From: Candidatus Marinacidobacterales bacterium
GTDB taxonomy: Bacteria > Acidobacteriota > Vicinamibacteria > Marinacidobacterales > DATDRI01
Assembly (NCBI GenBank): GCA_965219415.1
Contig: CBDCNP010000002.1
Coordinates: forward strand, 5,024,001 to 5,088,000
DNA: 64,000 nt
Direction of reading: 5' to 3'
The position numbers were made by a program, and so were the translations under genes. The notes beneath the pieces were generated by a model. The model did no database searches. It had not been told where the DNA came from and worked only from the letters and a program-made list of their open reading frames with translations. This document shows, piece after piece, positions 46,342-55,098 of this stretch. How positions within the stretch are numbered: the stretch's first letter is position 1; each line of letters opens with the position of its first letter.

Positions 46342-46399
46342 CGGACGTTCGCTCTTTTGCGCCGTAAAGTCCAGTCCAATGGGCGCTTCCGCGGGTGCG

Positions 46400-46606
46400 C
46401 AGTTCGCGGCCTGCAGCTCGTCCTGCAGCCGATTTGAGCCAGCCAGCCGTGCGTACCCCAGTGGGCCTGTCGCCCGCCACCCGCAGCCCAGGGGTCGGAA
46501 GCCAGCCCTGCGGCTCGAAATACTCTGGATTCTGCACGGATTCCAAGGGCGTCTAAGCTGCTGATTTGTGGTCTATTGCAAAAGGGCCGAGTTTTGGCAC
46601 AGGACG
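46400..46606 (+). repeat. ~200-bp imperfect direct repeat (copy 1) ending in transposon-end type B
   Basis: Aligns with ~47425-47632; ends CTAAGCTGCTGATTT..GGGCCGAGTTTTGGCACAGGACG. Confidence 0.85.
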
Positions 46607-46702
46607 GGAAGGCCGGGTTGGCATCCAGCTCCTCGCCCGACACGACGAGCCGCGCTTGGAGTTGGTAGAGGCCGGTCGCCCTTGGAGCTTCGACGGCGAT
46701 GG

Positions 46703-46800
46703 GGCTGTGCCCTCTATTTATTCATCCGTGCGCGCCGAACTTGATCGGTCTCCGGTCTCCCGGGACCATGCCTGCATGATCTCGTCGTTTGTTCGCGCTC
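46703..46800 (+). repeat. ~100-bp imperfect inverted repeat with 47816-47913
   Basis: GGCTGTGCCCTCTATTTATTCA..GTTTGTTCGCGCTC versus its reverse complement. Confidence 0.8.
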
Positions 46801-46882
46801 GGCCTTGGCACGGCCGCAAACACAAACACTAAGTTGCTGATTTATGGGCTATTTCAAAAGGGCCGAGCTTTGGCACAGGACG
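46801..46882 (+). repeat. Transposon-end repeat type B
   Basis: Other copies end at 46606, 47632, 47931, 57881 and 59518 (degenerate); minus-strand copies start at 48085 and 51466. Confidence 0.85.
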
Positions 46883-46941
46883 GCGTGGGCCTAGTTGTCC
46901 CCGTCGCCGTGCGCCATCTTGATTGCGAAGGTTGGATTACC

Positions 46942-47259
46942 TCAAGCTTTGCGCAGCCGCTTCACCGCAAGCACCACCAGAACCAGCGCCAGGATCAAAA
47001 GACCGAACATGAGCCCGGGGCTCATCCCGGTCTCCGCTGCCGTCGCCTCATCCGTTTCAGCGGTGGACTCTGCCATTTCTTCTACCGATTCGGCAGCCGA
47101 GTCCGCCATCTCGCCAGCAGCCTCAGCGGCTTCCCCAGCGGCGTCGGTTACCGCTTCCGATTCCTGCACGGCCTCCGATTCCTGCGCGGCGATGGCGTGG
47201 GTGAAACCCACTATCAACATAAGAGTTGCGATCGCAGCGAAACCAAAGATTCTCTTCAT
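46942..47259 (-). CDS. Small secreted acidic protein with C-terminal TM anchor and basic tail
   Basis: AGGAGGG RBS, signal peptide, E/A-rich linker, TM helix, KRLRKA. Confidence 0.8.
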   Translation of the reverse strand: MKRIFGFAAIATLMLIVGFTHAIAAQESEAVQESEAVTDAAGEAAEAAGEMADSAAESVEEMAESTAETDEATAAETGMSPGLMFGLLILALVLVVLAVKRLRKA

Positions 47260-47424
47260 CGCTCCCTCCTAATAGAACCCAACAATGCCATATATACAAA
47301 ATGTGAGAACGATGCAAGCGAAAGAAAGCCAGAGACGTTTGCCCCGAAGCCCACCACTCCTTAGGCCCGCCCAGGAGGATGCCGCGGAAGCGCAGGCGGC
47401 CGGTCCTCATGATCGGCGGACGGG

Positions 47425-47632
47425 TGCGAAGTCCGCTACCCGCAGCTCGCCCGGCAGCCGATTTGAGCCAGCCGTGCGCACGCCCGGTGGGCCTGTCGCT
47501 CGCCACCCGCAGCCCAGGGGGCAGAAGCCAGCCCTGCGGCGCGAAATACCCTCGATTCTGCGCGGATTCCAAGGGCGTCTAAGCTGCTGATTTGTGGTCT
47601 ATTTCTAAAGGGCCGAGTTTTGGCACAGGACG
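47425..47632 (+). repeat. ~200-bp imperfect direct repeat (copy 2)
   Basis: See 46400-46606. Confidence 0.85.
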
Positions 47633-47936
47633 GGGTCGGAGGCGATGTCGGCGATTCGAGTTCCCCGTACGCGCAGGGAAAACACAGTCCAGCAAGGGGA
47701 TGCCACGCTCCCGAGCGGAAACCTGGGTCCAGGCCCGGGCCGCACTTGGACCAGAACGTGCTAGCCCGCTGCGCCGCGGTAGCCCCGGCCTCGATTCTAG
47801 GTCCTCTAGAGACGAGAGCGCGAACAAACGACGAAATCATGCCGGCACGGTCCCGGCAGACCGGAGACTAATCAAGTTCGGTGCGCACGGGTGAATAAAT
47901 AGAAGGCACAGCCGAGTTTTGGCACAGGACGGGCTG

Positions 47937-47964
47937 GCCGCCAACACTTAATTGCGGAAGCACC
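47937..47964 (-). repeat. Orphan IS1-like terminal IR (unoccupied)
   Basis: Reverse complement GGTGCTTCCGCAATTAAGTGTTGGCGGC. Confidence 0.65.
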
Positions 47965-48443
47965 GCACAGGACGCGGTCTTGAGTTCGTTTGTGTTTTTG
48001 GACACGACGCGTTGGGCCCACGGACCAGGATCTCTCCATCCTTCGCGATCCTGACCTCGACTCCCTCGACGGGCTGTCCTACCGCGTCCTGTGCCAAAAC
48101 TCGGCCCTTTTGAAATAGGCCATAAATCAGCAGCTTAGTGTCTGTGTTTGCGACCGGGCCAAGGGCCGTGGGCTTTACAATCGTCTTGGGCGGGCGGGTC
48201 GTCACCATGCAGATGACCAGGTGCTTCCGCCATAAACTGTTGGCAGCCGAGCTCTAACCCGTGTATGTGGTAGAGTTTGAGCTTGAATTTGAGAGACGCA
48301 GTTCTTTCTGCGATGCCGGCTGGGCTGACCACACGGTGGCTGACGTCCAGGGACATCTTCGTGTTCACGCCGACATTCTTATTTATGGTGTTTGCCGACG
48401 CAGGCAGGCCAACTGACACTAGCATTCAAACGCGGCGTAGCAA

Positions 48444-49890
48444 CATATCTGGACTCCTCTAGTCAAGCCCCTTTCTTTCTAGTCACGCCCCTTTCTTAAT
48501 AAATCTTCCATCGAAGCTGCGCATCCATCGCGTCGTGACGAGTGGGTCAGACTGCAAACGTATCTTCGGCCTCAGTGAGGAGCGTCTTGGGTGCTCCGGG
48601 CCATGATGGAAAATCCGCGCGCGAGGAGCCAATCACTTTGAACGACCTCTTAGGGCCAGTGTTGCTATTGGCTTGACCCCGCGCCGGTCCGACCGGTACG
48701 CCATCAGTTGGATGGGTATCGTCGCAGCCTCTTTTGGAAGGGAAAAAGGAAAACACGAAAGTGGAGCCTCTAAATCTAAGCGGCCACCGGCGACTGGAAT
48801 TCACTCTCGCGGGTGGAGACGGCCCAGACGATCCGGGCGAGTTTGTTGGCGACAGCAATCACGGCCTTGTTGTGTCCCCGCGAGCGGTGGACCTTCCGAG
48901 CCCAGGCGCGGAGCTTGTCGGGCGGGCTCTTGCTGACGTTCGCCGCGCGGAGCACGGCGCGCCCGCCCTGGGTGAGGAGCATACGGAGGTAGGAGTCGCC
49001 ACGCTTGGTGATGCGTCCGAGGCGGCGAATGTCGCCACTGGAGTTTTCCTTGGGAACTAGGCCGAGGTAGCTCGAGAAGCGGCGCCCCGATGGGAAGCGG
49101 CGAAGATCGCCGACGAAGCCCACGATGGCGGTCGCGGCCAGAAGTCCGATGCCGGGAATGGCGAGAAGTCGTTGGACTTCAGGAAGCTGCTTGGTGAGCG
49201 CCTTGAGCTCGTGCTCGATGCTAGCGCACTTGTCCTTGAGTTCTCGAATCTCGGAGCAGGCATCACGGAGATGCGAACGGAGCACGTCGGGCAAATCAGA
49301 ATCAGCGTCTTCGACGAGTTCGAAGAGGGCGGGCACGACGAAGTGAGCGCCCTTTGGGATGATGAATCCGAGTTCGCGCAGGAGCCCGCGTACGGCATTG
49401 ATGCGTGCGGTCCGTGTGGAGAGCCATCCTGAGCGCAGGCGATGGAGCGCAGCGAGGGTGTGCTGGTGCACGGACTTGATGGGTACGGGAAGAAGCTCCT
49501 CGTTCCTGTAGGCCTCGAGCAACGCCTTCGTGTCGGCGCGGTCGTTCTTGCTCCCGCGTCGATACGGCCTCACGAGGTGAGGTGGGAGCAGGACGACGTC
49601 GTGTCCCAACCTTCGGAACGTCCTTGCCCAGAAGTGAGCCGAGCCGCAGGCTTCGAGAAGCACGGTGGCAGCGCTCTGTTTGGCAAAGAACGACACCAAT
49701 TTGGGTCGACTCACACGGAGTTGCTTGGACACCTTCCCCGCTTCTCCCGAGATGGCAATCTCGAAGACGTTCTTTGCAAGATCCACAGCGATTGTCGTAT
49801 CTTTCATTCGGACTCCTCCTTTTCGATGCGTATTCGACTGACTTTGGCACATCGATGCCGTCTATGTCAGTGGAGGAGTCCATTCCATCA
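48444..49890 (-). mobile_element. IS110-family, IS1111-type element, copy 1
   Basis: 1447 bp including both TG cores; sub-terminal IR TGGACTCCTC/GAGGAGTCCA; inverted copy of 51520-52966. Confidence 0.92.
48776..49807 (-). CDS. IS110-family DEDD recombinase
   Basis: AVDLAK, LEAC, KNDRAD, YLGLVPKENSSG, AVANKLARI. Confidence 0.95.
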   Translation of the reverse strand: MKDTTIAVDLAKNVFEIAISGEAGKVSKQLRVSRPKLVSFFAKQSAATVLLEACGSAHFWARTFRRLGHDVVLLPPHLVRPYRRGSKNDRADTKALLEAYRNEELLPVPIKSVHQHTLAALHRLRSGWLSTRTARINAVRGLLRELGFIIPKGAHFVVPALFELVEDADSDLPDVLRSHLRDACSEIRELKDKCASIEHELKALTKQLPEVQRLLAIPGIGLLAATAIVGFVGDLRRFPSGRRFSSYLGLVPKENSSGDIRRLGRITKRGDSYLRMLLTQGGRAVLRAANVSKSPPDKLRAWARKVHRSRGHNKAVIAVANKLARIVWAVSTRESEFQSPVAA

Positions 49891-50004
49891 CTTGATGGCG
49901 GAAGCACCCCCGGAGTGTAACGGAACTGCATGCTGGACCGAGATGGCGCGGATCAGGATAGGATAGCGGGCAGGACCGGCAACGGCTTTCAGGAGAGGAC
50001 CGCC

Positions 50005-51423
50005 ATGGCGAGTAAAGAGAAATTGCAGGCGTTTGTTGACGGATTTTGGGACGACGAGATCCTTCCCACCATCCAGGACTACATTCGCGTTCCCAACGTA
50101 TCTCCGGTGTTCGATCCCGACTGGGAACAAAACGGGCACATGGAGAAGGCGCACGAGCTTGCAAAGCGCTGGGTGGAGACGCATAAACCCGAAGGCTCGA
50201 CGCTCCACGTGGGGCGGTTGCCCGGTCGCACCCCGCTGCTGCTGTTAGAAGTGCCCGGAAAGAGCGATCGGACGGTTGTCATGTACGGGCATCTGGATAA
50301 ACAGCCGGAAATGACGGGGTGGCGTGATGGGCTCGGCCCTTGGGAGCCGGTAATGGAGGGCGAGAAACTCTATGGTCGTGGCGGGGCCGATGACGGCTAC
50401 GCAGTTTTCGCCTCGGTCTGTGCCCTACACGCGCTTCGTGCCCAGAATCTGGACCACGCGCGGGTGGTTGCCATCATCGAGTTCTCTGAGGAGAGCGGCT
50501 CTCCGGACCTTCCTGCTTACGTGGATCATTTCGAGGAACTGCTCGGCCAGCCCGAGCTCGTCGTTTGCCTGGATTCGGGAGCCGGCAATTACGATCAGTT
50601 CTGGTCTACGATCTCGCTGCGTGGGCTAGTGGGCGGCAAATTGAAGGTGCAGGTGCTTCAGGAAGGCGTCCATTCCGGCGATGCGAGCGGTATCGTCCCA
50701 TCCTCCTTCCGACTGTTTCGACCGTTGCTGGATCGTTTGGAAGATGCCGCGACGGGCCGGGTTCTGCCCGACGCCCTTCGTGTCGACATCCCCGCGCAGC
50801 GGGTCGAACAAGCGCGCCGGGTCGCCGAAGTTCTGAAAGACGGAGTGTACAGCAAGTTTCCGTGGATGAGTGGGATGAGGCCGGTCGAAGAAGATCCGAC
50901 CGAGCTCATCTTGAATCGCACTTGGCGACCCCAACTCGAGATCACCGGCCAGGACGGAATTCCCCCCGTGCAAAAGGCCGGCAATGTGCTGAGGCCCTAC
51001 ACGACCCTCAATCTGTCGCTACGGCTCCCGCCCACTCTCGCAACCGAGAAGGCGAAAGCCGTGGTGAAGGAACTTCTGGAAAAGGATCCGCCATACGGAG
51101 CCCATGTATCCGTCGAGTTCAACGAGCCGGCACAAGGTTGGAGCGCACCCGAGCTTTCTCCATGGCTCGGTCAGGCGATCGGGGAGGCCTCGGAGACTTT
51201 TTACGGAAAACCCGCCATGCACATGGGCGAGGGAGGCTCGATACCTTTCATGGGGATGTTGGGCGAGAAGTTCCCCAGCGCCCAGTTCGTGATCACCGGT
51301 GTACTGGGCCCCCAAAGCAACGCCCACGGACCCAACGAGTTCTTACACGTCGGGTACGCCAAGAAGCTCACCGCGTGTACGGCGCATATTCTGGGGAAAC
51401 ACCTGGAGAGCTCGGGGCGCTAG
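50005..51423 (+). CDS. M20-family metallopeptidase
   Basis: AGGAGAGG RBS. YGHLDKQP, YGRGGADDG, EESGS, HSG, GGSIP, AHGPNE. Confidence 0.92.
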   Translation: MASKEKLQAFVDGFWDDEILPTIQDYIRVPNVSPVFDPDWEQNGHMEKAHELAKRWVETHKPEGSTLHVGRLPGRTPLLLLEVPGKSDRTVVMYGHLDKQPEMTGWRDGLGPWEPVMEGEKLYGRGGADDGYAVFASVCALHALRAQNLDHARVVAIIEFSEESGSPDLPAYVDHFEELLGQPELVVCLDSGAGNYDQFWSTISLRGLVGGKLKVQVLQEGVHSGDASGIVPSSFRLFRPLLDRLEDAATGRVLPDALRVDIPAQRVEQARRVAEVLKDGVYSKFPWMSGMRPVEEDPTELILNRTWRPQLEITGQDGIPPVQKAGNVLRPYTTLNLSLRLPPTLATEKAKAVVKELLEKDPPYGAHVSVEFNEPAQGWSAPELSPWLGQAIGEASETFYGKPAMHMGEGGSIPFMGMLGEKFPSAQFVITGVLGPQSNAHGPNEFLHVGYAKKLTACTAHILGKHLESSGR

Positions 51424-51602
51424 ACGGACACCCGCCGCGGTAGCCCCAGCCTCGATTCTGGACCCCGTCCTGTGCCAAAACTCAGCCCTTTTGAATAGGC
51501 CGGTGCTTCCGCCATCAAGTGATGGAATGGACTCCTCCACTGACATAGACGGCATCGATGTGCCAAAGTCAGTCGAATACGCATCGAAAAGGAGGAGTCC
51601 GA

Positions 51603-52634
51603 ATGAAAGATACGACAATCGCTGTGGATCTTGCAAAGAACGTCTTCGAGATTGCCATCTCGGGAGAAGCGGGGAAGGTGTCCAAGCAACTCCGTGTGAG
51701 TCGACCCAAATTGGTGTCGTTCTTTGCCAAACAGAGCGCTGCCACCGTGCTTCTCGAAGCCTGCGGCTCGGCTCACTTCTGGGCAAGGACGTTCCGAAGG
51801 TTGGGACACGACGTCGTCCTGCTCCCACCTCACCTCGTGAGGCCGTATCGACGCGGGAGCAAGAACGACCGCGCCGACACGAAGGCGTTGCTCGAGGCCT
51901 ACAGGAACGAGGAGCTTCTTCCCGTACCCATCAAGTCCGTGCACCAGCACACCCTCGCTGCGCTCCATCGCCTGCGCTCAGGATGGCTCTCCACACGGAC
52001 CGCACGCATCAATGCCGTACGCGGGCTCCTGCGCGAACTCGGATTCATCATCCCAAAGGGCGCTCACTTCGTCGTGCCCGCCCTCTTCGAACTCGTCGAA
52101 GACGCTGATTCTGATTTGCCCGACGTGCTCCGTTCGCATCTCCGTGATGCCTGCTCCGAGATTCGAGAACTCAAGGACAAGTGCGCTAGCATCGAGCACG
52201 AGCTCAAGGCGCTCACCAAGCAGCTTCCTGAAGTCCAACGACTTCTCGCCATTCCCGGCATCGGACTTCTGGCCGCGACCGCCATCGTGGGCTTCGTCGG
52301 CGATCTTCGCCGCTTCCCATCGGGGCGCCGCTTCTCGAGCTACCTCGGCCTAGTTCCCAAGGAAAACTCCAGTGGCGACATTCGCCGCCTCGGACGCATC
52401 ACCAAGCGTGGCGACTCCTACCTCCGTATGCTCCTCACCCAGGGCGGGCGCGCCGTGCTCCGCGCGGCGAACGTCAGCAAGAGCCCGCCCGACAAGCTCC
52501 GCGCCTGGGCTCGGAAGGTCCACCGCTCGCGGGGACACAACAAGGCCGTGATTGCTGTCGCCAACAAACTCGCCCGGATCGTCTGGGCCGTCTCCACCCG
52601 CGAGAGTGAATTCCAGTCGCCGGTGGCCGCTTAG
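51603..52634 (+). CDS. IS110-family DEDD recombinase
   Basis: GGAGGAG RBS; protein identical to 48776-49807. Confidence 0.95.
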   Translation: MKDTTIAVDLAKNVFEIAISGEAGKVSKQLRVSRPKLVSFFAKQSAATVLLEACGSAHFWARTFRRLGHDVVLLPPHLVRPYRRGSKNDRADTKALLEAYRNEELLPVPIKSVHQHTLAALHRLRSGWLSTRTARINAVRGLLRELGFIIPKGAHFVVPALFELVEDADSDLPDVLRSHLRDACSEIRELKDKCASIEHELKALTKQLPEVQRLLAIPGIGLLAATAIVGFVGDLRRFPSGRRFSSYLGLVPKENSSGDIRRLGRITKRGDSYLRMLLTQGGRAVLRAANVSKSPPDKLRAWARKVHRSRGHNKAVIAVANKLARIVWAVSTRESEFQSPVAA

Positions 52635-52699
52635 ATTTAGAGGCTCCACTTTCGTGTTTTCCTTTTTCCCTTCCAAAAGAGGCTGCGACGATACCCATC

Positions 52700-52865
52700 C
52701 AACTGATGGCGTACCGGTCGGACCGGCGCGGGGTCAAGCCAATAGCAACACTGGCCCTAAGAGGTCGTTCAAAGTGATTGGCTCCTCGCGCGCGGATTTT
52801 CCATCATGGCCCGGAGCACCCAAGACGCTCCTCACTGAGGCCGAAGATACGTTTGCAGTCTGACC
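52700..52865 (+). ncRNA. Predicted bridge/seek RNA of the IS1111-type element (second copy ~48545-48710, minus)
   Basis: Two stem/internal-loop units whose loops match the reconstructed target and the donor junction. Ends approximate. Confidence 0.7.
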
Positions 52866-52969
52866 CACTCGTCACGACGCGATGGATGCGCAGCTTCGAT
52901 GGAAGATTTATTAAGAAAGGGGCGTGACTAGAAAGAAAGGGGCTTGACTAGAGGAGTCCAGATATGTTG

Positions 52970-53814
52970 CTACGCGGCTGTGGGCAGTGGTACAGGTGCG
53001 GAAGAGACCGGGTTGCGCGCCCTACTGAGCACGAAAACCTCGATCCGCGACCACAAAGGAATCGTCGTCGCCAAGAAGATGTCTCGAAAGGTGAGCCGTC
53101 GCGTGGTCAGACCAGCCTGCATAGCCGGAGTTCGGATCTCACGTCCGAACTTCAGAGCTCCGTGCGGTCGGACGAAGTTGTAATAGCAACGGAGCAACTC
53201 CAGGTGCTCATCGAGCCTCTCCGTCGAGCGAGTGTGGGAAAGCGTTCGTCTCGAAAGGTATGCCGAGCTTTGCCGGATGGTCAGATTTAACCGCTCGATG
53301 AACGACGTGTTCAATGTCGAAGAGTCCTCGGAGTTATTGAGCGCGTCATCAAATCGCCACGCAGCTCCGTGCAGCGCTCTGCGTTCGACCTTGATGATGC
53401 GATCGTTCCTGCGCGTCTTGAGGACCTGGCCATAAAGACACGCCGGACCGAAGAAGCGACGGATGACTTTCTGGTAGAATTCGAATCCATCCGTGACGAT
53501 CAAGGGAAGACGCTCGAAATTCATCCGTCTCGAAAGGTCGCGAAACAGAGCGTGAGTGTTCCGGTAGCTTCGCCTTCCCGTCGCCGTCGATGGCCAGAGC
53601 CGAGACCAGACTTCGATTGTAACGAAGACCCAACTCGGTGTCTTCTTGTTGCCCGCGAACGTGCGAATCTCGTCGGCTTGAAGCTCTTCGGCGGCGAAGC
53701 CAGCGATCCTTCTGTGATTGAATCGACGACACACTTGGGCTGCCTTCTCGAGCCAGCGGGCGACGGTGTTCCAGGCAATCCCTTTGATCCGGGAAATCGA
53801 GGAAATGCTGACAC
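52970..53814 (-). pseudogene. IS1-like DDE transposase, 5'-truncated
   Basis: LQADE, VTDG, TSFIERLNLTIR, YYNFVRPH..TPAM.AGL; stop is followed by an IS1-like IR split by IS110. Confidence 0.8.
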
Positions 53815-55098
53815 TGTGCATCGTCAAAACTGCTCCGCCCACGAAATCAAGGACTTACGCTCCGCTTGAATTCCGGGCCGAAGACGGCGAAACTCCGCCG
53901 CTATGCTCAACGTTGTTGTCTTCCTCGTCTCACTTGGGGTCCGTGCCATTCGGGCGATGTGTCGGCGCCGCGCCGACCTGGTGTTGGAGAACGTCGCTTT
54001 GCGGCAGCAAGTGACGGCGCTGAAGAAAGAGCGCCCACGGCCCACCGCTCGACGACACGGAACGGGCTTTCTGGGTTGCCCTTCGAGGTTCGTGGCCCGT
54101 GTGGGCGAGCCGCCTGCTCATCGTCCACGCGGACACCGTAGCCCGTTGGCATCGCGACCGATTCCGACGGTACTGGGCAAAGATCTCGCAGCGCCGCCAT
54201 CCCGGTCGGCCTCGGATTGATGCCGAGATTCGTCGCCTCGTCCGCACGATGGCGCAAGACGGCTGGGGGGCGCCACGCATCCATGCTGAGCTCACCAAGC
54301 TCGGTTTCATCATCTCCGAGAGCACGGTGTCGCGATACCTGCCGCGGCGTCCCGCGGAGCCCGACCAGCTGAAACGATGGATGGCTTTCTTGCGCAACCA
54401 TAAAGACGATATCGCCGCCATGGATCTGTTCACCGTGCCCACCGCGTCGCTCCGGCTGCTGTACGGCTTCTTCGTCATCGAGCACGGTCGCCGGCACATC
54501 GTTCACTTCAACGCCACGTTCCACCCGACGTCTGCTTGGGTTATTCAGCAACTGCGTGAGGCGTTTCCCTACGACACCGCTCCGAGATATCTCATCTTCG
54601 ATCGCGACTTCATCTTTAACGCTGCGGTCATCGAGTTCATCAAGGCAACGGGCACAAAACCCGTTCGCACTTCGTTTCGCAGCCCATGGCAAAACGGAAC
54701 CGCGGAGCGGTGGGTCGGCAGCTGCCGTCGCGAGCTCCTTGAGCACGTCGTGGTTCTCGGCGCATGTCATCTCATCCGGCTCGTGCGAGCTTACATCAGC
54801 TACTATCACGAGGACCGTTGCCACTTGGGGCTGAACAAGGACACACCGAGCTTGAGAACGGTCACGCACCGACCGTCTCCTACGGCGAAAGTAGTCGCAC
54901 TGCCGCGAGTCGGTGGACTGCACCATCGATACGAGTGGCGAGAGGCAGCCTGAGTCAGCTTGGTCGCTCGCGTTACTCGGCTGGTCGCCGAGAAGTTCGT
55001 CCTCAGCACCTTCCCTCGCGCGCTGACCACGCTCTCCAGCATGTGCTCGAGGGCGGTCCGGGCCCTAGAGTCCAGTCCCGGATTAATGATGATGGACA
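53815..55098 (+). mobile_element. rve-integrase-domain element with TGT..ACA ends (IS481-like)
   Basis: Ends TGTGCATCGTCA / TGATGATGGACA; truncates neighbours on both sides. Confidence 0.7.
53903..54953 (+). pseudogene. rve-domain transposase (frameshifted at ~54030-54100)
   Basis: LENVALRQQ, WGAPRIHAEL, AMDLFTV, DRD, SPWQNG.AER, GGLHHRY. Confidence 0.85.

Follow-up and report, generated by a model that had tools for sequence, protein, structure and literature searches.

IS1111-type elements are reported to make a small RNA, the seekRNA, downstream of their recombinase gene, with the match to the top strand placed first (Siddiquee et al., PMC11187229). For ISEc11 the same source describes an 82-nt RNA, carrying the target matches only, as sufficient for transposition. 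It further reports that, for both ISKpn4 and ISPst6, seekRNA was recovered together with the transposase on purification, that the non-coding region of ISPa25 matches the purified ISKpn4 seekRNA, and that IS1111-type proteins have the motif GL-P----S(t)G (PMC11187229). Durrant et al. (PMC11208160) give 7-17 bp for the sub-terminal inverted repeats of the IS1111 group, and predict that 93% of IS1111 elements have a bridge RNA in their right end.

The window, i.e. the whole 64,000 nt stretch of DNA analysed here, contains two inverted copies of an element that, judged on sequence, is an intact insertion sequence of the IS110 family, IS1111 group. Its main parts are as follows.

51520..52964, + strand: insertion sequence copy A, 1445 bp, TG+ATGGAAT...CCAGATA
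48446..49890, - strand: insertion sequence copy B, in the opposite orientation to copy A, with an identical ORF (coordinates mirrored from copy A)
51603..52634, + strand: recombinase gene, 343 aa, with an N-terminal DEDD/RuvC-like domain and a C-terminal Transposase_20 domain containing GLVPKENSSG
51528..51537, + strand: left sub-terminal inverted repeat TGGACTCCTC, 10 bp, 6 nt inside the left end and kept in relatives
52951..52960, + strand: right sub-terminal inverted repeat GAGGAGTCCA, 10 bp, reverse complement of the left repeat and followed by the terminal AGATA

Copy A may equivalently be written as 51522-52966, since TG flanks it on both sides. The two copies have 1477 nt in common, forming an inverted repeat (I1) with arms at 48432-49908 and 51502-52978. 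The recombinase matches Pfam families PF01548 (E 6.9e-12) and PF02371 (E 3.2e-24), and scores 302.9 bits against the NCBIfam model NF033542, "IS110 family RNA-guided transposase" (cut-off 140). Its GLVPKENSSG fits the IS1111-type motif, and the SG therein aligns with the SG of GLTPRRYESG in IS621. The sub-terminal inverted repeats are set in 6 nt (left) and 4-5 nt (right) from the element ends. The non-coding ends measure 81 nt upstream (51522-51602) and approximately 330 nt downstream (52635-52964) of the recombinase gene. In brief, the domains, the motif, the sub-terminal repeats, the longer non-coding region downstream and the use of one site in one orientation are those of the IS1111 group. 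A preliminary description of this DNA had proposed an IS110/IS1111 recombinase with its RNA encoded downstream; NF033542, both Pfam domains, the downstream non-coding region and the 10-bp repeats all agree with it. A direct duplication of about 20 nt (AAGAAAGGGGCGTGACTAG / AAAGAAAGGGGCTTGACTAG) lies at 52917-52957, just inside the right end, and is absent from the aligned copies of close relatives.

The source genome, 8.05 Mb in 3 contigs, has 30 full-length copies of the element (the alignment covering 1468 or more of the 1477 nt), 5 fragments and 28 intact recombinase ORFs. The RNA region discussed below is found in 31 copies, 28 of them identical and 3 carrying T52765C. All 29 left junctions read ...CATCAAGTG|ATGGAATGG, 30 of 32 right ends read CCAGATA|TGTTGCTA, and the uninterrupted target CATCAAGTGTTGCTA occurs 76 times as an exact match. 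From these 29 left ends, 32 right ends and 76 empty sites, the inserted segment is 1445 bp with TG on either side. The element boundaries assumed in the preliminary description are thus right, and its suggestion of possible recent activity is supported by the 28 identical copies.

We suggest that a bispecific guide RNA, termed a bridge RNA or long seekRNA, is encoded in the 3' non-coding region with the same orientation as the recombinase gene, and we give this reading a probability of roughly 85%. The predicted features are listed here.

52704..52870, + strand: predicted bridge/seekRNA; approximate limits, from the block conserved in relatives, with the strand from conserved G-U pairs
~48540-48706, - strand: RNA region of copy B, mirrored from copy A
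52714..52790, + strand: predicted module 1, around the target-binding loop, with stems P0, P1, P2 and P3
52714-17 with 52723-26, + strand: hairpin P0 (module 1)
52727-32 with 52785-90, + strand: stem P1 (module 1)
52737-42 with 52778-83, + strand: stem P2 (module 1)
52752-56 with 52763-67, + strand: inner hairpin P3 (module 1)
52743..52752, + strand: right target guide TAGCAACACT, complementary to the target top strand AG-TG-TTGCTA
52772..52776, + strand: left target guide AAGTG, equal to left target plus core
52792..52856, + strand: predicted module 2, around the donor-binding loop, from the RNAalifold consensus
52792-94 (GCG) with 52854-56 (TGC), + strand: weak closing helix (module 2)
52807-11 (TGGCC) with 52839-43 (GGCCG), + strand: stem P5 (module 2)
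52813-17 (GGAGC) with 52827-31 (GCTCC), + strand: inner hairpin P6 (module 2)
52799..52807, + strand: right donor guide TTCCATCAT, complementary to A-TG-ATGGAA of the predicted circle junction (core plus left end)
52845..52851, + strand: left donor guide AGATACG, equal to the right end AGATA plus a C/T-G core

The RNA would fold into two stem-enclosed internal loops. The 5' strand of loop 1 (52743-52752) would base-pair to the top strand at the core and right target (TG-TTGCTA). The 3' strand (52772-52776), AAG-TG, would base-pair to the target's bottom strand, since it is equal to the left target plus core. In loop 2, the 5' strand (52799-52807) would pair with the core and the left end of the circularised element (TG-ATGGAA), and the 3' strand (52845-52851) would represent the right end and core (AGATA-YG). 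By analogy with IS621 and ISEc11, the element would be excised as a circle, and the DEDD/serine recombinase, loaded with the RNA, would bring together circle junction and target and exchange strands at the TG core. The guide order in the window is top-strand match 5' of bottom-strand match. The left target guide has 5 nt only; its match grows to TCAA(A)GTG if one A is bulged.

Direct reading of the window located every string quoted in the preliminary description, among them AGCCAAT (52737-52743), ATTGGCT (52777-52783), GCGGAT (52792-52797) and GTTTGC (52851-52856). The GGCC/GGCC pairing placed inside loop 2 is present at 52808-52811 and 52839-52842, within P5.

Relatives were gathered from 71 loci of named genomes; among 301 genomes of the phylum searched, 17 had a match at E <=1e-40, the source genome counted. 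We aligned 16 non-coding regions from elements with recombinases 46-98% identical to that of the window, including ISPa25, taken from a plasmid record. Both modules show compensatory changes in their stems across relatives with 34-62% identical recombinases and ISPa25. In module 1, 90.1% of the cells in the 16 sequences are paired and 12 of 21 pairs have compensatory changes; none of 500 shuffles reached as high, and slid controls gave 28-42%. Module 2 was counted on 15 sequences, leaving out L079, where the 3' part is missing. P5 is 100% paired here and P6 has compensatory changes in 4 of 5 pairs. RNAalifold recovered the same helices independently, with compensatory changes in 11 of 26 pairs. 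Consensus folding and covariation across homologs, the latter proposed earlier as a check, recover both modules. The single-sequence fold of the whole non-coding region (z = -3.3) recovers module 1 and misses the comparative fold of module 2, and it was therefore kept out of the evidence for loop 2.

Loop 2 had been described as closed by GCGGAT/GTTTGC. The outer two of these six pairs are conserved, whereas pair 5 is open in 10 of the 15 sequences and pair 6 in 8. On this count, a 6-bp closure was rejected beyond the outer two pairs. The closing helix has no covariation support, as its 2-3 conserved pairs never vary. Other registers (e.g. CGGA with UCUG) fit, by eye, some relatives and not others.

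If the loops hold guides, these should follow the flanks and ends of each element. For the right target guide we compared the 9 nt before P3 with the right flank of each of 11 elements, leaving out L001 and L019, which have the target of the window, L079, which has no right end, and L080 and L083, where the contig ends at the right end. It should be noted that the relatives are kin and independent changes few, and that the permutation figures consequently overstate independence and significance: the right target guide scored 7.91/9 against cognate and 4.93/9 against non-cognate flanks (0 of 20000 permutations as high), and the left target guide, in 9 elements, 3.78/5 against 1.75 (permutation p ~1e-4). 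The right target guides of L075, L077 and L094 match at 9/9, and those of L046, L093 and L076 at 8, the odd position of L076 being a G-T wobble. Two of the 11 relatives, L078 (7/9) and L082 (6/9), fit their flanks poorly, within the non-cognate range.

Locus L018 has a recombinase approximately 94% identical to that of the window and occupies another site, CCAGTG|..|TGATTGTTA, with ...CTCCAGTG on the left and TGATTGTTATCC on the right. Its loop 1 is rewritten to TAACAATCG + GCAGCG, compared with TAGCAACAC + AAAGTG in the window, and its loop 2 is unchanged. L018 is present as a single copy in its genome, and a search for its empty site in the source genome and the collected relative loci gave none. 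We regard this single copy as an apparent natural analogue of retargeting, by means of a rewritten loop 1. Two sister-lineage copies, L016 and L017, lie outside the usual repeat target; the left flank ends in ..GAAAGTG at L016 and in ..CTCGAGTG at L017. For the left target guide, CAAAGTG, the L016 flank is a closer match than the usual target.

The donor strands bear on the question of whether loop 2 is a guide at all. An alternative is that loop 1 guides the choice of target and the protein recognises the element ends via the sub-terminal inverted repeats, with the complementarity of loop 2 being dispensable or serving another role, such as regulation or excision. However, loop 2 is conserved as much as loop 1 across the relatives with 34-62% identical recombinases, and its strands track both ends. 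The left donor guide scored 4.89/5 against cognate and 3.97 against non-cognate right ends (18 elements, 0 of 20000 permutations as high), and each of the right-end variants AGATA, ATATA and ATACA is paired with its own left donor guide. The right donor guide scored 5.0/6 against cognate and 4.36 against non-cognate left ends (14 elements, 18 of 20000 permutations as high), and the left-end variants ATGGAA, ATGAGA and ATGAA each come with their own right donor guide, except for a mismatch in L077. The donor covariation nevertheless rests on few independent changes, because the donor strands vary little, which counts for a role of the target loop only. The weak closing helix of loop 2 and the systematic core mismatches in the donor guides speak in the same direction. 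The 82-nt seekRNA of ISEc11, with two target matches only, is reported to have moved a mini-element at 42%, above the 154-nt form (PMC11187229), and as this RNA is sufficient, loop 2 may be unneeded. On the other hand, the IS1111 members inspected by Durrant et al. (PMC11208160) have target and donor loops. We consider a role of loop 1 alone unlikely. Support for the predicted donor loop is weaker than for the target loop, given the few independent changes and the core mismatches.

The core mismatches have a regular form. TG had been proposed as the core, and it is indeed found at both junctions of the window element. Most relatives have TG at the left junction and CG at the right, and their left donor guide reads ..ACG there. 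In the window, the left donor guide mismatches the core, with C against the T of the junction. The preliminary description matched AGATACG to the donor AGATATG at 6/7. Since the right junctions of most relatives read CG, AGATACG is the inherited form and not a degraded copy: it is found in nearly all relatives, with right junctions AGATA|CG. The sister lineage L019 has AGATATG. In five relatives (L080, L083, L093, L046 and ISPa25), the right donor guide has a G opposite the core G. The point of strand exchange within the pyrimidine-G pair is not readable from the sequence.

The predicted circle junction, CAGATATGATGGAA, had no matches in the genome assembly, as expected for a transient form. 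Joining the ends (52944-52964 with 51520-51528) gives TTGACT, 18 nt and TGGAAT; the core TG would lie one base upstream of this latter hexamer. This arrangement, at 9/12 on a junction built in a script, hints at a possible junction promoter and is too weak to claim as one. A junction promoter is named in the title of an ISEc11 paper cited in PMC11187229.

Returning to the bispecific guide RNA, the matches could instead be features of the DNA, either protein-binding sites or captured fragments of target and ends. They are short, and a scan of 51450-53000 for promoters and terminators gave no sigma-70-like promoter and two terminator-like sites, both on the wrong strand, which counts against the guide RNA and for a role of the DNA. 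Assembled contigs from four RNA-library runs, which bear on transcription, RNA ends or circles in neither direction, match portions of the gene and small stretches of the non-coding region. Two of these contigs have the conserved flanks 52713-52733 and 52825/52837-52863 with differing letters in between, and thus derive from relatives. A scan of 47000-54000 against Rfam (E <=1) gave two chance microRNA matches only, and no bridge-RNA family, a further point against the guide RNA. We nevertheless regard a role at the DNA level as very unlikely. The conserved G-U pairs fit the + strand only, which sets the strand of the predicted RNA, and together the compensatory and G-U changes make sense only for a + strand RNA. 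The T52765C change in the three variant copies of the source genome turns a G-U pair into G-C. Moreover, the matches lie at fixed positions of the fold and vary with the flanks in the relatives, which captured fragments would not do.

That the matches arose by chance in a GC-rich non-coding region has next to no probability. We shuffled the 315-nt region 5000 times with its dinucleotides preserved: 12 shuffles had an antisense match to the empty target as long as the observed 10 nt, 11 had one to the circle junction as long as the observed 9 nt, and none had both. The pattern also recurs in relatives with other sequences. The same-sense matches AAGTG (5 nt) and AGATACG (6/7), taken singly, are non-significant; what gives them meaning is where they lie in the fold and how they compare with relatives. 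The complementarities of target and donor loop put forward in the preliminary description are thereby borne out, by the shuffles and by the relatives.

The bispecific guide RNA would direct the element to one particular kind of site, the terminal repeat of an IS1-like element. At copy A this site is laid out as follows.

51502..51521, + strand: left target half, the outer 20 nt of the interrupted IS1-like terminal inverted repeat, ending in the core TG; identical at 29/29 left junctions
52965-52975: right target half TG-TTGCTACGC, from the right-end junctions
52965..53842, no strand assigned: remainder of the interrupted IS1-like element, from the junctions and the ORF list
52970-53842, - strand: transposase-like ORF of the interrupted IS1-like element, with a weak match to the IS1 family

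The 20 nt upstream of every copy are GGTGCTTCCGCCATCAAGTG, and the sequence farther out is unrelated between copies. The ORF at 52970-53842 scores 57 bits against the IS1 family transposase model NF033558, under the cut-off of 100. The genome has approximately 480-500 termini of the target repeat family, with the sequence GGTGCTTCCGCCAT(C/T)AAGTGTTG.., found in the window at 47945-47964, 48220-48239, 49889-49908 and 51502-51521. Inverted pairs of termini are spaced at a fixed 1200 bp (25 pairs, classes a and e) or at about 245 bp (13 pairs, classes b and d). From the fixed spacing, a 1.2-kb element and its miniature derivatives have these termini as their terminal inverted repeats, and the IS1-like element has undergone a very large expansion in this 8-Mb genome. 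Insertion is 20 nt into one of the terminal inverted repeats of the IS1-like element or its miniatures, always in one orientation. The target is thus not arbitrary; it belongs to the terminal inverted repeat of a different insertion sequence.

Several further observations concern the surroundings. Copies A and B (48446-52964) flank a 497-aa ORF at 49930-51423. The outer 20-nt repeat tips each face this ORF, which therefore sits between two IS1-like elements with both near ends interrupted. A repeat of about 35-60 nt (..GTCCTGTGCCAAAACTCGGCCCTTTTGAA..) is found many times, in both orientations, at 46392-48164 and 51461-51495 of the window, and also immediately before several IS1-like termini elsewhere in the genome. 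A transposase-like ORF at 54099-54953 (284 aa), with an integrase core domain (rve_3, E 1e-8), adjoins the interrupted IS1-like element.

Occupied and empty sites in the genome differ between variants of the repeat. ATCAAG|TGTTGCTA sites are occupied in 30 cases and empty in 77, whereas ATCAAG|TGTTGG.. sites are occupied once and empty in 61 (Fisher p 6e-6), and ATTAAG|TGTTGG.. sites are never occupied, with approximately 190 empty. Thirty of 31 insertions are thus in the TTGCTA variant that matches the guide, with the 77 such sites and several hundred near-variants left empty. The base that discriminates TTGCTA from the TTGG variants faces G52745 of the right target guide.

The right end AGATA is fused directly to internal sequence of the element at 8 related loci (L002, L010, L011, L014, L015, L016, L017 and L027; 13 joints), and once in the source genome, on contig C3 beyond the window. 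The joints create tandem extra copies of the RNA region and right end, joined to the 3' part of the recombinase gene or to the non-coding region. The two bases following the 13 joints are TG in 10, CG in 2 and AG in 1, and GG in the source genome case, so that a core-like TG or CG comes next in 12 of 14. These joints resemble traces left by recombination at look-alike sites within the element. We speculate that the recombinase also acts on such sites in its own element, and that the joints reflect a regular self-directed reaction and not debris. Combined with the specialisation on the terminal repeat of an IS1-like host that has approximately 480-500 termini in the genome, this would turn the element into a hyperparasite able to spread in two ways; we hold this to be doubtful. 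If true, self-directed joints could raise the dosage of the guide RNA, or spawn units of RNA plus end without a recombinase.

Mechanistically, the element adds nothing new; it is a clear natural instance of an already known kind of RNA-guided mobile element. With 28 copies identical, 30 sites occupied, and 77 matching sites and several hundred near-variants empty, the genome holds a record of the specificity of an IS1111-type guide RNA. The series of relatives, with a close relative having a rewritten target loop, shows which loop positions track the target, the left end and the right end. This could aid the design or choice of IS1111-type recombinases, which are less studied than IS621. The locus is in addition an example, from an uncultured acidobacterial lineage, of an insertion sequence that specialises on another one's end; the order name, Marinacidobacterales, was not found in the papers from a limited literature search.

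In every feature testable here, the element fits the IS1111 pattern. Like IS621, it has a predicted bispecific RNA with target and donor loops, each pairing with both strands around the core dinucleotide, and a recombinase with a DEDD domain and a serine-bearing C-terminal domain, which gives a weak sequence match to PDB 8wt6. The core of IS621 is CT, whereas the core here is TG. The sub-terminal repeats, given as 2-3 bp for IS621 (PMC11208160), are 10 bp here. Unlike in IS621, for which the opposite strand order is reported (PMC11208160), the RNA is encoded downstream and the 5' sides of its loops would pair with the top strand. The likeness to ISEc11 lies in the IS1111 type, the downstream non-coding region and the top-strand match 5' of the bottom-strand match. 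A natural retargeting of ISEc11 is reported in its close relative ISXne4 (PMC11187229), analogous to L018 here.

The closest named relative found is ISPa25, with 45.9% protein identity. Shared with ISPa25 are the left end ATGGAAT-GGACTCC and the two-module RNA scaffold downstream of the gene; its right end reads GGAGTCC-ATATA. ISPa25, ISKpn4 and ISPst6 form the IS1111-attC group, described as inserting in attC of integron cassettes (PMC11187229). The ISPa25 copy examined here sits between cassette genes. In contrast to that group, the present element targets an IS1-like terminal repeat, has other loop 1 strands and resides in an acidobacterial genome. The right flanks of relatives (..GTTAGG.., ..GTTAGCC..) resemble what we take to be attC sites.

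IS4321 and IS5075, also of the IS1111 family, insert at one position and in one orientation in Tn21-family transposons with 38-bp repeats. Likened by description, retargeting onto the terminal repeat of another element is a parallel between these and the element described here, the hosts in the present case being 1.2-kb IS1-like elements and their miniature derivatives of approximately 245 bp.
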